A DNA stretch of 46,566 nucleotides from Candidatus Sumerlaeota bacterium (GCA_017161655.1 JADFCV010000012.1:22118-68683); one strand, 5' to 3'. Shown: positions 1,547-40,405, numbered from the stretch's first letter. Translations and numbers: made by a program. Notes: generated from the letters alone by a model not told the origin.

Positions 1547-1594
1547 AAAAACAACGACCGGCATGACCCGGTGCGCGAGGTCATGCCGGCGTTG
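1547..1594 (-). terminator. Rho-independent terminator of the 1613..2422 gene
   Basis: 11-bp stem CCGGCATGACC/GGTCATGCCGG extended by CAACG/CGTTG, followed on the minus strand by a T-run (AAAAA at 1547-1551). Confidence 0.75.
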
Positions 1595-1612: not shown

Positions 1613-2422
1613 CTACTTCAGTTTTTCGGCGAGCTCTGTGGGGGAAACTTTTTGCATGAACTGCATCAACGGCGCGCCTTTTGGATCGTAAATGTTGATG
1701 ACGCCAGCTCGATAGACTCCTAGCTGGTAAGCGAGTTTATTCTGTTCCATGAAATTGACGCGCACCGGTACGTAGTTTTGTTTCAGGATCGCTTCGACTT
1801 CTGGGGCTTCTAGCACTTGCTCGAAATAGTCGCTCATTTTGCTGCCGCGCATAAAGAAAAAGATGAGGATGCGTTTGTTCTGTTCTGCGGCACGCTTTTG
1901 CGCTGCCGGGATGCTCGTAAGCCACTCGAGCGTGGAGGTACTCTTTTTTGCGCCAGCCTGAGTGAGGGCTGGTGGCATGGGGGTGGGGGCGGGCACGTTT
2001 TTCCCCAGACGCAGCACATTGTTCTTGCTGCCAAGTCCGTTATCAACGCGATCCATATTGAGAGGGTCAAGCACCCACTCCGATCCCTCTTCCACAAATT
2101 TGTACTCGTGCACGCCTTCCGGGAGATTCACTGTGATAAAGAAAAGATTGCCATAACGTTGCATCTGATCTTTATTCGTCGCCCAGTCGTTGAAAGTGCC
2201 AGCCAAAAAAACCTGGGAAGCGGCAGACTGATATTTGAACGTGACGTCGTAAGTCCCATCAGGGCGCGGCCGAATGTCTACGGAAGGAGGGGGCGTGTAG
2301 GCGGGTGCCGCAGACTGAGCCAGGGGACTTCCTGCACCGACGAGGAAAGCCATAAGCGCGGCGGTGAAAAGCCATCTCCTTAGGTAGTAGGAGAACTGCG
2401 ACATTGTATATACCCTTTTCAT
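1613..2422 (-). CDS. Secreted protein: CBM48/AMPK-beta-like glycogen-binding domain plus cysteine-less thioredoxin-like C-terminal domain
   Basis: Signal peptide; VTF...VFLAGTFNDW...LPEGVHEYKFV..G.EW..DP.N (CBM48/early-set pattern); Pro-rich linker; C-domain W...AQKRAAEQNKRILIFFF...SKMS. Confidence 0.8.
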   Translation of the reverse strand: MKRVYTMSQFSYYLRRWLFTAALMAFLVGAGSPLAQSAAPAYTPPPSVDIRPRPDGTYDVTFKYQSAASQVFLAGTFNDWATNKDQMQRYGNLFFITVNLPEGVHEYKFVEEGSEWVLDPLNMDRVDNGLGSKNNVLRLGKNVPAPTPMPPALTQAGAKKSTSTLEWLTSIPAAQKRAAEQNKRILIFFFMRGSKMSDYFEQVLEAPEVEAILKQNYVPVRVNFMEQNKLAYQLGVYRAGVINIYDPKGAPLMQFMQKVSPTELAEKLK

Positions 2423-2614
2423 TAGAACGATCCAAAAATTCGAAAAAATCCGCGCATTCTGTCAAGAGACTTTTTTGAAAAAAATAGAATTCAATTTCAC
2501 TCACAGACGGGGCAAGGGATGAGTGGGTAAACTATTTGCCAGCAATGATTTCAGAGGTAGCCCACGCGGCTCCGGACATGAGCTTAGGAATCCCCTTTTT
2601 GAAGACGTCTAACG

Positions 2615-2650
2615 AAAAAGCAGAGGGAACGCCAGTGCTTTCCCTCTGCT
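2615..2650 (-). terminator. Rho-independent terminator of the 2673..3704 gene
   Basis: Stem AGCAGAGGGAA/TTCCCTCTGCT with a T5 tail on the minus strand. Confidence 0.75.
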
Positions 2651-2672
2651 CTCATTGACATTGGTTTTTTTG

Positions 2673-3704
2673 CTACTGGGCTTTTAGTTTAGCCGCGAGC
2701 TCGCTTGGCGTGAGGCGTTCGGTGATCTGGAACAGAGCATTTCCCTGGGCATCATAGACGTTGATCACGCCTGCTTTAAACACGCCGAGGCTGTATGCAA
2801 TTTTGGTGTTCTCCAGGAAATTCAGGCGTGCGAGAACATAGTTGTTTTTCAGAATCTCCACGACTTCAGGGCTCGCGAGATTCTTCTCGAGGTCTTGTGA
2901 GCGTGCGCTCGTTGGGGCGAAGAAGAACAGCAAGATCCGCTTGTTTGTTCCGGCTGCTTCTCTTTGCGCATCCTGAATATTCTCGAACCATTTTAGCTGT
3001 CCGACCACAGTTGGCGCAGTCTGTGGGGGCGGAGCACTCCCACCCCTCGAAGGAGTGACCGTGGCAAGGGCCGCTTGCCCGGGATCTTCGAGGGGTTTTG
3101 ATGAGAATCGCACAGCATCGGCATAAACCTGGCCGTAGTTTTTCGGAGAAACAGGTTTCACACTGGCGTCCACGCGGAGCTCGACGTACTGCTCGTTGCC
3201 GGCGTCGAAATCATAATCCCCAATCAAGACCCACGTGTTGGCGTTGCTAATACCGGTTTCTGTACTGCCCCACCCGTCTTGAGTCAATTCTTTGGTGTCA
3301 GAGCCTTTCGCATGTTTGACAATGTATTTTACCGGTGTTGCATTCGCGGCGCGCGGCCATGTGGCGTAAACATAGTAATGGCCTGGTGAACGAAAGCGTG
3401 GATAAAATCTCGCAGCAGCCGGCTCAGGGGTCCCCTTTGGATCTGGATTGTCGGGGGTGCCCATAGAAAACAGGTATTTTCGAGAACCACACTTGTTGCC
3501 GTCCGTGCATCCTGGCGCCCGACTCTTCGCTGTTGTAGCGGGCGTTTTGCTGTCCATCCATTTGCCTTCGATCTCTTCGTAATGATCGAAATTTTGTCCT
3601 TCTTTCTGTGTTTCGATGATGATATCTTGTGCTTGAAGAGTCGTGACCCCGAGACAGACTACTGCTGCCGCGAGACATCGCGCACCGTTTTTCATGGAAA
3701 ACAC
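2673..3704 (-). CDS. Secreted protein: Golvesin/xanthan-lyase-CBD-like beta-sandwich plus cysteine-less thioredoxin-like C-terminal domain
   Basis: Signal peptide (..LQA-QD); GHYYVYATW...NATPVKYIVKH..G...NTWVLIGDYDF.AG...V.ADAVRF matches the Golvesin-like CBD pattern; C-domain is paralogous to that of 1613..2422. Confidence 0.75.
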   Translation of the reverse strand: MFSMKNGARCLAAAVVCLGVTTLQAQDIIIETQKEGQNFDHYEEIEGKWMDSKTPATTAKSRAPGCTDGNKCGSRKYLFSMGTPDNPDPKGTPEPAAARFYPRFRSPGHYYVYATWPRAANATPVKYIVKHAKGSDTKELTQDGWGSTETGISNANTWVLIGDYDFDAGNEQYVELRVDASVKPVSPKNYGQVYADAVRFSSKPLEDPGQAALATVTPSRGGSAPPPQTAPTVVGQLKWFENIQDAQREAAGTNKRILLFFFAPTSARSQDLEKNLASPEVVEILKNNYVLARLNFLENTKIAYSLGVFKAGVINVYDAQGNALFQITERLTPSELAAKLKAQ

Positions 3705-3875: not shown

Positions 3876-4862
3876 ATGAAAATCATTGAAACAAAGAAAC
3901 TATCCAAAGTCTACACGCATGACTTTATTGATGTCGAGCATGGTCGGATTAAGTTTAACTTTTTCCGGCGCACCGTGGCGCTCGACGGTCTCGACCTGGA
4001 AGTTGGTGAAGGCGAGATCTTTGGCCTGCTGGGCCCGAATGGGGCGGGCAAATCCACGACCATAAAGATCCTCATGGGAATCATTTTTCCCACGAGTGGC
4101 ACAGCGCGGATCATGGAGCGTCCGCTAGGCGACAAGGAGGTCAAGGCCAAGATTGGTTTTCTCCCCGAGAATCCAGCGTTCTACGATTATCTCAAGGGGG
4201 AGGAATTCCTCGACTACTATGGCCAGCTCTACGGGATGCCGCGGTCGGTGCGCCGTAAACGCATTGACGAGCTCTTCGAGCTGGTTGGTTTGCCAGACCA
4301 TGCTCCGAATCTGCCGCTGAAAGGTTATTCGAAGGGCATGATCCAGCGCATTGGCTTAGCGCAGGCTCTGCTCAATGATCCCAAGCTCGTGGTGCTGGAT
4401 GAGCCGCAGTCGGGGCTCGATCCGCTGGGGCGCAAAGAAATTCGCGACATCATTTTGCGGCTCAAAGATCAGGGTAAAACAGTGTTCTTCAGTTCGCACA
4501 TTCTCTCGGATGCGGAGCTCATCTGCGACCGAGTGGCCATCGTCAATCGCGGTCGGCTGGTGGCGATGGGCGAGCTGAGTCATTTGCTGAGTCCGAAAAT
4601 CAAAGAGTACGAGTTGGTGGCAAGCGGCCTTTCGCGCGAGAGCCTCGACGTGCTCGAAAAACATGCGCGAAAGTTCATCGAACGAGAGCGGGATGTGCTG
4701 ATGATTCTGGAAAAGGAAGAGCTTGTGAAGGAGGCGTTGCGACGCATCGTGGCAGAAAACGCCAGCCTTGTGTCGCTGACCCCGCGTAGGGAAACGCTCG
4801 AAGAATACTTCATTCGCGAGGTGGCGCGCACAAATGCCCCGCGCGAGGAGGTACGTGCATAA
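3876..4862 (+). CDS. ABC transporter ATP-binding protein (ABC-2 type, PilH-like)
   Basis: Walker [10 protein letters not shown], signature YSKGM, Walker B VVLDEP, H-loop SSH. Confidence 0.93.
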
Positions 4863-5845
4863 TGATGAAGGTCCTAGCTATCGCGCTCAATACGTTCAAG
4901 GAAGCGGTTCGAAACAAGGTTCTCTACTTCCTTTTGATTTTTGCGCTGCTCATCATGGGCTTTTCAGGCGTCATCAGCGATCTTTCGATTGCTGCTCCGG
5001 AAAAGCTCATCAAAGACCTTGGCCTCGCCGCGATCGATTTCTTTGGTTTTCTCATCGCTGTGTTTGTCGGCGTTTACTTGGTCTACACCGAGCTGGACAA
5101 GAAAACGATTTACACGATCGTTTCCAAGCCAATCGACCGTTATCAATTTATCCTCGGAAAGTTTTTTGGCCTACTCATCACCATCTACGTGAACATGCTC
5201 ATCATGAGCATTTTCTTCTTCGCTGTGCTTTACTTCCGCGATGCCACGGATTTTGACAAAGTGATGAAGGCCATCTACCGCGAGGTGGCGCCAGGGCAGT
5301 TCGAGCCGATCGGCAATCCGCAGGTGCAATACTACCTCTATCACCTCAAGCAGTTTATCATTGCCGTAGGTAAGGGCATTGCCACGGTTTTCGGCTACTC
5401 GGAACCCATCACTCATCATCTGATGCGCGTGATCGGCATGAGTGCACTCGGCCTCGCGATCATCACGAGCTTTGCGATTCTTTACTCCACTTTCTCAACG
5501 CCGACGCTGAGCGCTGTTTTTACGTTCCTCACCTGGATTATCGGGAGTCTTTGCGAGGACATTTTGCGCTACGCCGAGCGCCTGGCACAGAAGGCCGGTG
5601 GTGTGCAGAACCTCGTGGGGCCGGACCTGCTGAAGTACTGGTTTGCTCAGGTGGCCATGCACATCGTGCCGAATCTGGCACTCTTCGACAAGCGCACGGA
5701 AGCCGTCTATGGGCCATGGGAAGTGGCCACCCCCAACATCCATAATGTGCCCATTGATTGGGTGTCAGTGGTCTATGGCCTCGTTTACGTGGCAGGGGTG
5801 CTTTGTTTGGCTTCGATGATTTTCAATCGGCGGAATTTCAAGTAA
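4862..5845 (+). CDS. ABC-2 type permease (PilI-like)
   Basis: AIALNTFKEAVRNK N-terminus, KDLGLA, ELDKKTIYTIVSKPIDR.QFILGKF.G, C-terminal F.RRNFK; multiple TM helices; TAATG coupling with the ATPase. Confidence 0.85.
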   Translation: MMKVLAIALNTFKEAVRNKVLYFLLIFALLIMGFSGVISDLSIAAPEKLIKDLGLAAIDFFGFLIAVFVGVYLVYTELDKKTIYTIVSKPIDRYQFILGKFFGLLITIYVNMLIMSIFFFAVLYFRDATDFDKVMKAIYREVAPGQFEPIGNPQVQYYLYHLKQFIIAVGKGIATVFGYSEPITHHLMRVIGMSALGLAIITSFAILYSTFSTPTLSAVFTFLTWIIGSLCEDILRYAERLAQKAGGVQNLVGPDLLKYWFAQVAMHIVPNLALFDKRTEAVYGPWEVATPNIHNVPIDWVSVVYGLVYVAGVLCLASMIFNRRNFK

Positions 5846-5849
5846 GCCT

Positions 5850-7154
5850 ATGCGACGCTCGATCCTTCAAAATATCGTACTGTTCTTTTGCTTCATCGCG
5901 TTTTTTGCGGCAGCGGTGACGATCCAGCACAAGAATCTGGAGAAGGTGAAGCTCAATCCGCCGTTCATCGAAACATGGATGCTCTCCGGGCGGAGCGGCG
6001 AACTCCTGAAGCTGCTGGCGTTACGATACGATTTGGTGGCGGCGGACTTCCTCTGGCTGCGGGCCATTCAGTCGTTTGGCGGGCGCGGGATGACAAACCG
6101 CGACTGGAAGCCCGTGTATAATATGTTCGATACGATCACTGAGCTGGATCCGTATTTCGAAACCGCTTACACCTTTGGGAATATGGTCATAGGCGACGAA
6201 GGAGGACGGCAGCGCGAGGGGCTTGGGCTTCTCAACAAAGGCATGTTCCGCCTTGTTCGTCAGTATCGCATTCCTTTTGAGGGAATGTACGTTGCCCATT
6301 GGCAGATGGGCGACACGAATCTTGCCCGCTGGTATGGACGTGTGGCGATGAAGCGGCAAGATGCGCCGAATTGGGTTCCTCGGGTGGTGGCGTACATTGA
6401 AGTCCAGGCAGGTTCTTACTACATTGGATTCGATCGGTTTGTGTCGAATCTTCTCCAAGGGCTGGACGCGAGCGATTTCGATATGCAGCGCATCGCTCTG
6501 AATAAGATCCAGGAAGCTATAGACAAGTGGAACAGGGCTTACCTTTCACGAGCCTATGACGAGTTTACGACGCGCACGGGCCGGCTTCCGCGACAAATCG
6601 AGGAGCTGGCAGATATGCCCGCCCTGAAGGAATACGAAGTGGCGCGGATGAGCAAATTCATCGCGGCAATGGAAAAACGCGCGCGTGCCATGAACAAGGA
6701 ATTTGCGATACATCCCGATCTTCGGAGGGGGTTGCCGTGGCCACCGCGCGAGGAGATCGAAGCCCCGCTTCCGGCGGACAGCGCTGCTAAGCCAGGCGTG
6801 AAATGGGAAGAGTTGCGCAACGAAATTTTCCGCGAGTCGCTCGTGAAGCAATCAGGGATTCCAGAAGATCCCTATGGTTCAAGGTACGTCATCAACCTCA
6901 GCTTTGCTGGTTACCCGTTTGCGAAAAAGGATGACATCATCACACACGAGACGGACCGCTTCGATTTCTTGAAGAACCTGCTTCAGGGTGTGCGCAATTC
7001 CATCGCTGAACGCAAGAAGATGCTTGGGCGTAATCCGGAATCATTGCGAGAGGTCTTTTACACCGATTTCCAAACGACCGAGCCCTATGGCGCCAGTTGG
7101 AAATACGATCCTGCGACAGGGGATTTCCGCTCCACCTCGCACCCGGAGTTGTGA
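5850..7154 (+). CDS. Membrane-anchored ABC accessory protein, PilG-like/TPR-like
   Basis: N-terminal TM; ADFLWLRAIQ.FG and ITELDPYF..AY.FG motifs resemble proteins encoded with pilHI-type ABC systems; co-operonic. Confidence 0.55.
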   Translation: MRRSILQNIVLFFCFIAFFAAAVTIQHKNLEKVKLNPPFIETWMLSGRSGELLKLLALRYDLVAADFLWLRAIQSFGGRGMTNRDWKPVYNMFDTITELDPYFETAYTFGNMVIGDEGGRQREGLGLLNKGMFRLVRQYRIPFEGMYVAHWQMGDTNLARWYGRVAMKRQDAPNWVPRVVAYIEVQAGSYYIGFDRFVSNLLQGLDASDFDMQRIALNKIQEAIDKWNRAYLSRAYDEFTTRTGRLPRQIEELADMPALKEYEVARMSKFIAAMEKRARAMNKEFAIHPDLRRGLPWPPREEIEAPLPADSAAKPGVKWEELRNEIFRESLVKQSGIPEDPYGSRYVINLSFAGYPFAKKDDIITHETDRFDFLKNLLQGVRNSIAERKKMLGRNPESLREVFYTDFQTTEPYGASWKYDPATGDFRSTSHPEL

Positions 7155-38557: not shown

Positions 38558-40405
38558 GTGATGAAAAACGTGCGATCGAGAAGTGCAATACATTGGGGAA
38601 GTGGTCCGGCGATGATGCAGTGGCAGATCTTGGCGACCGTAGTTGGCGCGATGGTGCTATTTGGGGCGCCTCTCAATGGATGGGCTCTTCCGGGGTGGTT
38701 GACAAGCTATAAGGCCGGATTGGCGCAAGCGCAACGGGAGGGCCGCCCTTTGATTATAGATTTCGGCAGCGCAACTTGTCCCGCATGTCGCATGCTTGAG
38801 AGTCGCACCCTTCGGGATGAGCGCGTTCAGGGCGAGCTTGATAACTTTGTCCGGGTCTACATTGATGGGAATGAGCAGGTAAGTCTGCGCGAGAGTTTTG
38901 GAGTTCAATACTACCCGACCGTTGTTTATCTCTCGCCGGAGGGGAAGGTCATCAAACGTCATGTGGGGTACGTGGGCCCTGATGAGATGTTACAGGTGCT
39001 GCGTACGGTTGCAAACAACGTACAAAAAACCCCGAAGGACCGCGCGATTGCTGGTTCCTCCGTCCAAAAGATCGTGCCTGAAGCGCCGGCACATGCACAG
39101 CCGGGAAAAGGGCCAAACAAGGGCATCGGCAATCTTTACGAAAGTGTTGCAGCATCTGGAGCAAAGCAGGATGCGATCCAAAAGGGACGCGAAGTGGCTG
39201 TAGTGCCGGCAGTTCGCGCAGAGCAGAATACGCGGATCGATCTGGTGGGACGCGAAGCCAATGGTGCGAGGTGGGCTGGCGGAGGGGGAGAAGAGAAGGT
39301 GGTGGCGCAAGCGCTGCCTATGCCAAAGAATATCGAGACGCCTGCACCGCTCGTGAACATTAAGCCGGAGACTACGCCAGAAGCGCCGAAAGCAACTGCA
39401 ACACCCGTGTCCACGGCACCACCGGCCCAGGGAGCAAAGTCGGCGCTGCCGGAGTCGATTAAAAAGTTACAATCGCAATCGCCTCGTGCGCCCAAGACTG
39501 AGAGCACGAGGGAAGAGCCGACCCCCGTGCCGTCGGCTTCGGCAGAAGGAAAGGTCGCTGCAAAAGCCCCGTCTGAGAAGACGCAAACAGGCACTGCTTC
39601 AACGAAAGCTTCGCCGAAACATGCGCCGGCCCAGGCAATCAAAGAAGAGTCAGCGGCCGAAGAGAAAAAAGCCCCCACCGAGAGCGCAAAAGCAGCATCA
39701 AAATCTCGCGGGAGCGGGGAAGTCACCGCCAAGGATATTGAGGAATGGTTTGCTGATGCGGAGAGCAAGCTGGTGGCTGGCTACAAAAAAGAAGCGCGGG
39801 CAATGTACGCCAAGATCGTCGAACGTGACCCCTCAAATAAGTTTGGAAAGAGCGATCTTGCGTTTATTAAGATGGTGGCGCTCATGGTGGACCGCGAGGA
39901 CGATCAGCTGCGCCGCGCGGCCCACGCGAAAATCAAGGAGTTCCTGAAGCGTTTTCCTGAGTCAGCCAACAAAGACTATTACACGGTTGTCCGAGCAATT
40001 CTCGCAGCAGATCTTGGCGACTATGCCGAAGCCCATGCCTTACTGGACCGCTTTCCTGAGGAGTTTCCAAATTCGCGGTACCAGGATTTAGCACGGGCAG
40101 TGTGGGAAGAGCTGCCCAAGGATGCAAAGAGCTTACAGAAGCGCCCCCAAGTTGATCGCACGGCGAGCAATCGCAAGCCGACGTCAACCGTCACGAGCTC
40201 AAAGAAAACGTCGAGTGAATCGAGTTCAAAATCGGCTACCACGAAGAGCAAGTCGGCTGGGACGGCCTCCACTTCGAAAAGCAGTTCCACTGCCCGCAAA
40301 ACAGGTGGTTCCGACAGCTCTTCAAAACGGGATGTTAGCAAGAGCAAATCTTCGTCCGCGTCCAAAACGAAATCGAGCGGCTCGACCTCGGCCAGCAAGC
40401 AGTAG
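38558..40405 (+). CDS. Exported thioredoxin-family protein (CPAC) with long Ala/Pro/Lys linker, TPR-like domain and Ser/Lys/Thr-rich tail
   Basis: Signal peptide; W...AQREGRPLIIDF.SATCPAC...FGVQYYPT; TPR/BamD-like helices (FLKRFPES, FPEEFPNSRY); low-complexity C-terminus. Confidence 0.8.
   Translation: MMKNVRSRSAIHWGSGPAMMQWQILATVVGAMVLFGAPLNGWALPGWLTSYKAGLAQAQREGRPLIIDFGSATCPACRMLESRTLRDERVQGELDNFVRVYIDGNEQVSLRESFGVQYYPTVVYLSPEGKVIKRHVGYVGPDEMLQVLRTVANNVQKTPKDRAIAGSSVQKIVPEAPAHAQPGKGPNKGIGNLYESVAASGAKQDAIQKGREVAVVPAVRAEQNTRIDLVGREANGARWAGGGGEEKVVAQALPMPKNIETPAPLVNIKPETTPEAPKATATPVSTAPPAQGAKSALPESIKKLQSQSPRAPKTESTREEPTPVPSASAEGKVAAKAPSEKTQTGTASTKASPKHAPAQAIKEESAAEEKKAPTESAKAASKSRGSGEVTAKDIEEWFADAESKLVAGYKKEARAMYAKIVERDPSNKFGKSDLAFIKMVALMVDREDDQLRRAAHAKIKEFLKRFPESANKDYYTVVRAILAADLGDYAEAHALLDRFPEEFPNSRYQDLARAVWEELPKDAKSLQKRPQVDRTASNRKPTSTVTSSKKTSSESSSKSATTKSKSAGTASTSKSSSTARKTGGSDSSSKRDVSKSKSSSASKTKSSGSTSASKQ

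Follow-up and report, generated by a model that had tools for sequence, protein, structure and literature searches.

A thioredoxin-fold module lacking catalytic residues recurs on unrelated, predicted exported proteins of Sumerlaeota

Results

Two adjacent genes with unrelated heads share a C-terminal module

The window analysed here, a 46,566-nucleotide stretch of DNA from a Candidatus Sumerlaeota bacterium (GCA_017161655.1 JADFCV010000012.1:22118-68683), contains, at positions 1613 to 3704, two adjacent minus-strand genes, gene A (protein P0002) and gene B (protein P0001), each of which specifies a signal-like start, an N-terminal head, a linker, and a C-terminal domain of ~105 amino acids (aa) that has the thioredoxin fold without its active-site residues (hereafter, the module). 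The features of the two genes are:

2673..3704, minus strand: gene A (P0002), 343 aa; signal-like start, Golvesin_C head, linker, and C-terminal redox-dead thioredoxin module
3630..3695, minus strand: predicted signal peptide of gene A, with a basic start, a hydrophobic core, and LQA ahead of QDIII (sequence reading, no predictor)
3099..3629, minus strand: Golvesin_C jelly-roll head of gene A (Pfam, E 9e-13; Protein Data Bank (PDB) 6f2p, E 8e-4)
2997..3098, minus strand: Pro/Thr/Ala/Gly-rich linker of gene A (composition)
2676..2996, minus strand: thioredoxin module of gene A, with SARS at the CxxC site (2898-2909) and FKAG at the cis-Pro loop (2769-2780)
2615..2650, minus strand: intrinsic-terminator-like hairpin and U-run 3' of gene A (z -7.2)
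1613..2422, minus strand: gene B (P0001), 269 aa; signal-like start, CBM48 head, linker, and C-terminal redox-dead thioredoxin module
2318..2404, minus strand: predicted signal peptide of gene B (sequence reading, no predictor)
2003..2290, minus strand: CBM48 (AMPK-beta type) head of gene B (Pfam; residue alignment)
1931..2002, minus strand: Pro/Thr/Ser-rich linker of gene B (composition)
1616..1930, minus strand: thioredoxin module of gene B, with SKMS (1832-1843) and YRAG (1703-1714) (alignment)
1557..1590, minus strand: intrinsic-terminator-like hairpin and U-run 3' of gene B (z -4.8)

Public gene calls start gene B at Met7 (263 aa) and gene A at Met4 (340 aa).

The initial annotation of the locus described two separately terminated genes with unrelated N-terminal domains, Pro/Thr-rich linkers, homologous C-terminal domains, and no evident catalytic domain, and each of these points holds. 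Each open reading frame is followed by its own hairpin and U-run. The head of P0001 is AMPK1_CBM/CBM48 (Pfam, E 2e-14), the head of P0002 is Golvesin_C (PF25275; 48.8 bits vs. a cut-off of 31.6), and the two proteins have no significant alignment beyond their C-domains. The linkers comprise 26-32% Pro+Thr. The C-domains are 46% identical over 130 aa including linker (E 9e-35) and 52% identical over the ~105-aa domain, and both match Thioredoxin_7 (PF13899), P0001 above the gathering score of 27 bits (30.8) and P0002 just below it (26.1). A Pfam scan finds no catalytic domain in either protein, and NCBIfam gives no family above cut-off for either.

The CBM48 head of gene B, aligned to PDB 1z0n (E 1e-11), contains the Trp, Lys, Trp, Leu, and Asn that mediate sugar binding in CBM48, and has paralogues within this genome, the three CBM48 repeats of a secreted GH13 enzyme. 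The head of gene A shows weak similarity (E 8e-4) to the C-terminal domain of the Paenibacillus xanthan lyase 6f2p, a region that presumably corresponds to CBM84. CBM84 modules bind xanthan, according to a portion of PMC11002231, and are also treated in a portion of PMC10049358.

The two modules are 58% identical in nucleotide sequence and use the same codon at 25 of 54 shared residues, which excludes a recent duplication or conversion between genes A and B and argues for an old split. Close relatives are titled Candidatus Sumerlaeaceae, the window's own family (f1; here and below, G, C, L, and f numbers are our handles for genomes, contigs, loci, and families), and G006 has three tandem module genes at the corresponding locus.

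The module has a thioredoxin fold and has lost the active site

The thioredoxin fold assigned in the initial annotation is borne out by structure prediction. A model of the module, folded from a 25-sequence alignment, has a predicted local distance difference test (pLDDT) score of 96.6 and shows a mixed-beta-sheet thioredoxin fold with an N-terminal Trp-helix extension. The best structural matches are DsbD-gamma, DsbH, and Thermus thermophilus 2lst (Z 15.5, 15.1, and 15.1; root-mean-square deviation 1.6-1.9 over 105-107 residues), with template-modelling (TM) scores of 0.79-0.86 for DsbD-gamma and 2lst. A single-sequence fold of P0002 (pLDDT 39) was set aside, and ESM Atlas returned generic thioredoxin clusters only.

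In the comparison with solved structures, SKMS and SARS align with CPYC of 2lst, and AG of the cis-Pro loop aligns with its TP. The modules of P0001 and P0002 have no CxxC and no Cys at any position, and have Gly in place of the cis-Pro and Phe in place of the buried Asp. The motif serines are encoded by AGC and TCA, not by TGA, which rules out selenocysteine at the motif. In dithiol oxidoreductases, a buried Asp precedes the CxxC motif. The cis-Pro is likely part of the polypeptide-binding site of the thioredoxin fold, and redox-dead members are frequent as isolated cases: 22% of the fold class either lacks standard cysteine motifs or is not assignable (both from a portion of PMC2757866).

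The window also contains, as initially annotated, a true thioredoxin that retains CPAC and YPT (38558-40405, plus strand). This protein is an exported CxxC thioredoxin with a long low-complexity linker, a TPR region, and a Ser/Thr/Lys-rich tail, and its orthologues retain CxxC.

The module is widespread in Sumerlaeota

An iterated profile search of this genome identifies 15 thioredoxin-like domains: 8 modules, 6 CxxC domains, and 1 other CxxC-less domain, located at the start of a 796-aa frame. The six modules other than those of genes A and B occur with a second Golvesin head (very long linker), an OB fold, two propellers, and a Kelch propeller, and in a head-less lipoprotein-like protein. 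Across the phylum, profile A1 (E 1e-8) yields 396 matches, including ordinary CxxC proteins, in 72 of 75 Sumerlaeota genomes, and sequences were recovered for 140 of the best 150 of these 396 matches. Because the profile was built from modules, the recovered matches favour modules; as a control for this bias, nearly all matches at E 1e-5 were taken in ten genomes. Domains without CxxC account for 23/25 in G044, 15/16 in G061, 14/14 in G054, 10/10 in G017 (two of the ten being decayed thioredoxin-TPR proteins), and 14/17 in G008 (17 recovered of 19 matches) among rich genomes, and for 1/2 in G018 (2 recovered of 3) and 1/2, 0/4, 0/1, and 1/4 in the others among poor genomes.

Upon pooling, 195 of 218 distinct domains lack CxxC; homologues thus do not mostly retain the motif. 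Six thioredoxin-TPR-type proteins were excluded from the 195, four that group with CxxC domains in the tree described below and two by likeness. The result is 189 modules in 49 genomes, representing 13 of 18 Sumerlaeota families, far above the two copies from which the initial annotation started. Families f1, f6, f9, f11, f12, f14, and f15 are rich in modules, and the matches examined from f5, f8, f10, and f13 include none. Among the frames recovered from G048, G034, and G069 there is no module. Tandem arrays of two to four near-paralogous genes for Kelch- or LamG-like heads plus module are seen in G044 (C165, C399, C454) and G054 (C56), and we read them as a sign of ongoing expansion.

Among the best 150 matches from 1.84 billion representative sequences, 57 are single-domain matches of at least 98 bits, none with CxxC, and the heads of most of these 57 recur in the Sumerlaeota set; the remainder are multi-thioredoxin proteins, with at most 81 bits per domain, some of which are also CxxC-less. 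All named database matches carrying the module are from Sumerlaeota, and, in another phylum, 8 of the 61 genomes sampled match at E 1e-12, all 8 with WCxxC. The named matches, together with the one other phylum sampled, indicate that the module is likely restricted to Sumerlaeota.

The module carries a consistent groove signature and is under purifying selection

The SxxS motif and cis-Pro-to-Gly replacement of the initial annotation are present in both window proteins but define the Sumerlaeaceae subtype, not the family. Across the 189 modules, the residue at the first Cys site is Ala in 63, Ser in 37, Val in 37, and Asn in 17; the second Cys site is Cys in 91, Ser in 47, and Ala in 16; and the cis-Pro site is Pro in 147 and Gly in 40, with every Gly in f1. 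Sixty-six of the 189 have no Cys anywhere in the domain.

Features shared across the family are found elsewhere in the groove. An aromatic-basic pair, [FY][RK], precedes the cis-Pro site in 122/192 modules vs. 0/20 CxxC domains, the basic residue of the pair is present in 157/192 modules vs. 0/20 CxxC domains, and the buried-Asp site is Tyr or Phe in 161/195 modules, as compared to Asp in 14/23 CxxC domains. The consistency of this signature suggests that the groove has been remodelled, not left to decay. For eight same-genus pairs, the proportion of non-synonymous differences (pN) is 0.06-0.12 vs. a proportion of synonymous differences (pS) of 0.68-0.88. We conclude that the module is under purifying selection.

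The module is a single, usually terminal copy on diverse heads

In 185 complete CxxC-less proteins, the module is C-terminal in 141, N-terminal in 32, internal in 5, and solo in 7, and in none does it occur twice (0/185). The initial description of a shared C-terminal module is therefore correct as to reuse, mobility, and terminal position, but not as to a fixed terminus. A signal-like start, assigned by a hydrophobicity rule and not by a trained predictor, is present in 160 of the 185. The flexible linkers have a median P/T/S/A fraction of 0.56 vs. 0.30 in heads (n = 141).

The heads are not all carbohydrate-binding, as had been supposed. Partner clusters comprise a Golvesin/LamG-like cluster of 60 (merged via multi-domain proteins), Kelch (33), another propeller (26), CBM48 (21), OB fold (11), and many small clusters, and further Pfam heads are CBM11, CBM4_9 (weak), F5/8, LamG, TPR, and EF-hand. 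The tree-cluster label 'CBM11like' was a guess; Pfam names no domain in that cluster. No glycoside hydrolase is present among the 85 module-bearing proteins scanned with Pfam, and Kelch heads give weak epimerase-like matches, below cut-off. Two exceptions to non-catalytic heads are known, a cytochrome c and, in G008, a protein kinase. The kinase has the order kinase, hydrophobic stretch, Golvesin_C, module, with similar C-termini in G007, and its Golvesin_C-plus-module unit looks, from sequence, to have been taken whole from a protein of the gene-A type. Tandem genes for Ser/Thr-kinase-like membrane proteins, with an outer part ending in Golvesin_C and module, are located at L200:57-5541 (G008 C29) and L201 (G007 C150). 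At L227:1228-2511 (minus strand; G054 C232), a multiheme cytochrome c-like membrane-anchored protein has a C-terminal CxxC-less thioredoxin domain without the aromatic-basic pair.

Four of the seven head-less modules are lipoprotein-like, all in f1. A head-less lipoprotein-like f1 module at L004:5474-5947 (minus strand) has relatives at L100, L147, L152, and L300 and is kept in G005.

The same head type can carry the module at opposite ends (CBM48, 5 vs. 16; OB fold, 9 vs. 2) and can occur without it. In this genome, heads without the module are seen in a GH13 enzyme with triple CBM48, a CBM48-esterase, a triple OB-fold protein, and a Kelch protein with a DWxLY-type tail (see below), and Golvesin_C has 20 matches genome-wide. 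Since the same heads occur module-free in the same genome, the heads do not need the module to fold.

Trees favour repeated fusion of the module to new heads

A quickly built tree (94 domains, 108 columns) has a branch, with Shimodaira-Hasegawa approximate likelihood-ratio test (SH-aLRT) support of 98, that parts 66 modules from 24 CxxC domains and 4 decayed thioredoxin-TPR domains. Because the tree is unrooted, with many forks open, it allows, and does not prove, a single origin. A careful tree of 44 rows, which omits three others (two Gly-type rows with long branches and one that is non-orthologous), splits 37 Gly-type modules from 7 Pro-type Golvesin-fused modules at 97/86. A single clade of CBM48-head modules, a group chosen after seeing an earlier tree, is rejected (approximately unbiased (AU) test, p 0.004). 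Golvesin and CBM48 modules of one genome pair at 96/91, and the CBM48 heads of f1 fall with the CBM48s of f1 enzymes, away from the f9, f11, and f14 heads, at only 85/84. The rejection of the CBM48 clade and the grouping of the CBM48 heads are both consistent with a module that was fused to new heads more than once; the clustering of most modules by head type speaks against this. We propose that the Gly subtype, in which the last Cys and the proline were lost, arose in a Golvesin-head gene of Sumerlaeaceae and spread from there to heads of other types, CBM48 and OB fold among them, and that genes A and B belong to that spread.

Discussion

A possible docking function

Our favoured reading, held tentatively and with somewhat less than even confidence, is that the module docks predicted exported proteins onto a single common partner in the cell envelope, for which a protein is a likelier candidate than a polymer. 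According to this proposal, the signal peptide would direct module-bearing proteins to Sec export; the old substrate groove, comprising the cis-Pro loop and the start of helix 1, would now hold the partner without chemistry; the linker would let each head reach its own ligand (for the CBM48 of gene B, an alpha-glucan); and the outcome would be a set of exchangeable heads, for binding or sensing, gathered at a single and probably periplasmic site of the envelope. A more specific version, which we consider distinctly doubtful, is a plug-and-socket system in which the interchangeable heads of a genome (lectin-like, propeller, and OB-fold, as many as about two dozen), together with receptor kinases, dock via the old groove onto one scaffold. 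The dockerin-like docking suggested in the initial annotation fits the genomic behaviour of the module, which is the sole basis of the analogy, but no scaffold was found.

Several observations weigh against docking onto a single shared partner. The mean column identity of the module, 31%, is lower than a single fixed interface would lead one to expect; in comparisons between genera, the module often shows less conservation than its head (54 vs. 72%, 63 vs. 85%); most modules cluster by head type, not by genome; and RVP, RAG, and GAG subtypes coexist in one genome, so that the modules may not share one partner. The loss is patchy: G005, which is 92% complete and belongs to the same family as the window, retains no module other than a head-less one among its 4 matches. 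CxxC-less Thioredoxin_7 repeats are common in unrelated multi-thioredoxin proteins. Dockerin_1 (PF00404) has no match in this genome, an internal-repeat search yields no convincing scaffoldin-like repeat protein, no conserved module neighbour is seen beyond f1, and no candidate partner co-occurs specifically with the module. An unannotated 434-aa protein encoded next to genes A and B is present in 70/75 genomes, including module-lacking ones, and is adjacent to the module only within f1; an exported protein with two cohesin-like domains is present in 74/75 genomes, including module-lacking ones, usually as two paralogues.

Partner candidates and probable location

The gene for the 434-aa protein, rejected as a partner on the distribution just given, is located at 3876-7154 (plus strand) of the window with genes for an ABC ATPase and an ABC-2 permease, divergent from genes A and B; this ABC set may resemble the pilus-associated PilH/PilI/PilG sets. 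The two-cohesin protein (L240:1260-2816, minus strand, corresponding to G000 C6:12259-13815; paralogue C9:399841-400800) was likewise rejected as a scaffold: it shows no specific co-occurrence with the module and is not operonic with it in the loci read. In 4 of 91 cases, vs. 1.0 expected, the distance between a two-cohesin gene and a module gene is at most 6 kb (p 0.02), with p 0.12 at 3.5 kb, both distances having been chosen post hoc. Complex prediction with the tandem cohesin-like domains and two modules gives a score of 0.02, in a job unlike those of the tool's calibration, and counts neither for nor against an interaction. We regard the two-cohesin protein as a weak lead. In f9 and f14, its gene has pilT-like and pilus-ATPase-like neighbours, as judged by sequence reading, and its second domain has invariant Asn/Asp residues.

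A DWxLY-type tail, [AV]x[DE]WxL[YF](E), is present together with a signal-like start in ~28 of 43 loose-pattern proteins of G000, for example:

G000 C2:1149-1976 (minus strand), C9:175943-176617 (plus strand), C11:37399-38553 (plus strand), C14:387-1292 (minus strand), C15:8234-11314 (plus strand): proteins with a DWxLY tail

No module-bearing protein has this tail (0/185). With a strict pattern, which possibly misses tail variants, the tail exceeds a reversed control in f1, f2, f17, f18, and G018, and not in f6, f11, and most of f9; since these last are module-frequent, the tail was rejected as the module ligand. In G005, tails number 23 vs. 7 in the control, yet the genome has only the head-less module. 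Two exported proteins have a second tail type, VPVEVSHFTLE and LPTVLSVFSIE (G000 C11:159327-161030, plus strand, and C10:412802-415591, minus strand), which presumably resembles the strand preceding Bacteroidota sorting domains. This genome has three secretins. An unusually long secretin of 1582 aa, with TPR repeats, is encoded at G000 C9:215655-220400 (plus strand), and a highly repetitive 2160-aa frame at G000 C11:2-6481 (minus strand) runs off the contig end.

The membrane-kinase fusions and the absence of the DWxLY tail from module-bearing proteins argue for the periplasm rather than the surface, and the location is, on these sequence features, probably periplasmic. Of the undescribed surface system of the initial annotation, the novelty appears to stand, in that no curated family names the module, but for at least some proteins the kinase fusions point to the periplasm instead. 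Literature on Sumerlaeota, redox-inactive thioredoxin folds, CBM84, and Golvesin, not covering subscription Sumerlaeota genome papers and supplements, contains no description of the module; the accessible portion of PMC8092238 has 'thioredoxin' once, for trxR, and does not have 'dockerin'. The module family looks undescribed.

Alternative explanations

The module could instead anchor proteins to an envelope polymer in the manner of SLH domains, its aromatic-basic pair gripping an anionic glycan (peptidoglycan or a lineage polysaccharide), with no protein scaffold. An aromatic residue paired with Arg or Lys would suit an anionic sugar or phosphate, neither a scaffold gene nor a conserved neighbour was found, and a polymer anchor would explain moderate conservation, use at either terminus, presence in the outer part of membrane kinases, and head-less lipoproteins. 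However, wall-binding modules usually occur in tandem repeats, whereas this module is never repeated in a protein, and its median net charge is merely +1. The thioredoxin groove, moreover, normally binds polypeptide (a portion of PMC2757866), and we judge a polymer anchor unlikely. Self-association, in which modules assemble heads into homo- or hetero-oligomers for avidity, head-less lipoproteins serve as tethers, and kinases dimerise, would accommodate the head-less copies, the fusion behind a transmembrane kinase, and the pairing of modules within one genome; it also accords with the fold shared with AGR3 and other non-redox relatives (Z 12.6 for AGR3), which oligomerise. We nonetheless think it rather improbable: G005 has its head-less copy without a head-bearing partner among its 4 matches, lipoprotein-like solo copies occur in f1 only, and most modules track the head, not the genome.

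A role as an export address for a type II secretion or pilus route, or as a folding aid analogous to the solubility tag of engineered thioredoxin fusions, would be in keeping with the single terminal copy, with the mutual exclusion of module and DWxLY-type tail, with the presence of that tail in place of the module on a paralogous Kelch head and several Golvesin proteins, and with the three secretins. The module, however, is also found on membrane-anchored kinases and on head-less proteins, the latter without cargo; enzymes with the same heads do without it; and a solubility role would not require a conserved groove pair, all of which makes this role quite improbable in our estimate. Residual one-cysteine thiol chemistry could be envisaged from the frequency of the second Cys (91/189) and of the proline (147/189), since cxxC sites are catalytic in peroxiredoxins (a portion of PMC2757866). 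It appears very improbable in view of the complete lack of Cys in the window modules and in 66/189 overall, the free interchange of the second position with Ser, Ala, and Val, the predominance of Ala, Val, and Ser at the first, and the loss of DsbA turnover upon cis-Pro replacement (a portion of PMC13269488). In addition, 37 modules have a Cys on the following strand, and 28 of them (kin, not independent) also keep the second motif Cys, a pattern that fits a structural disulfide. Finally, an inert passenger that owes its spread to duplication and exon-like shuffling would be expected to show the patchy distribution and the faster divergence than some heads that we observe, but not strong purifying selection, a family-wide groove signature, or repeated independent fusion to CBM48, and to this explanation we give hardly any credence.

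Relation to known systems

Through the module, as many as about two dozen exported proteins per genome that lack annotation can be recognised as a single functional class, in a phylum that is widespread but uncultured, and the database label 'thioredoxin family protein' is misleading for them. The graded series from CxxC with Pro, through xxxC with Pro, to SxxS with Gly presents an enzyme site becoming a probable binding site. The best profile matches, as well as the closest structures, are the Thioredoxin_7-type dithiol oxidoreductases DsbD-gamma, DsbH, and 2lst, which have the same fold including the extra N-terminal helix. These proteins keep CxxC and the cis-proline, whereas the window modules have lost both, together with the buried aspartate, and each is joined as a single copy to a binding-type head.

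Thioredoxin folds without dithiol chemistry are also seen in the UAS domain of UBXN7 (2dlx; Z 13.0) and in AGR3 (3ph9; Z 12.6), and portions of PMC2757866 and PMC12827327 cite ERp27 as a non-catalytic and SH3BGRL as a non-redox thioredoxin fold, respectively. All four are eukaryotic and have fixed architectures, unlike the mobile module. To our knowledge, none of them serves as a mobile tag for dozens of exported proteins in bacteria. SLH-type wall anchors likewise fix unrelated domains to the envelope through one shared module, and PASTA-type receptor kinases likewise have an extracytoplasmic module on a Ser/Thr kinase; no Pfam scan of module proteins gives an SLH or PASTA-type match, and the module is single-copy and has a thioredoxin fold.

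With the dockerin-cohesin system of cellulosomes, the module shares small size, terminal position, one copy per protein, a Pro/Thr linker, and shuffling among exported proteins of one lineage. It differs from that system in having a thioredoxin fold, in having non-catalytic cargo, and in having no multi-cohesin scaffold tied to it. If the docking reading is true, Sumerlaeota would have a cellulosome-like architecture built from a different fold pair and displaying binding or sensing heads instead of enzymes.

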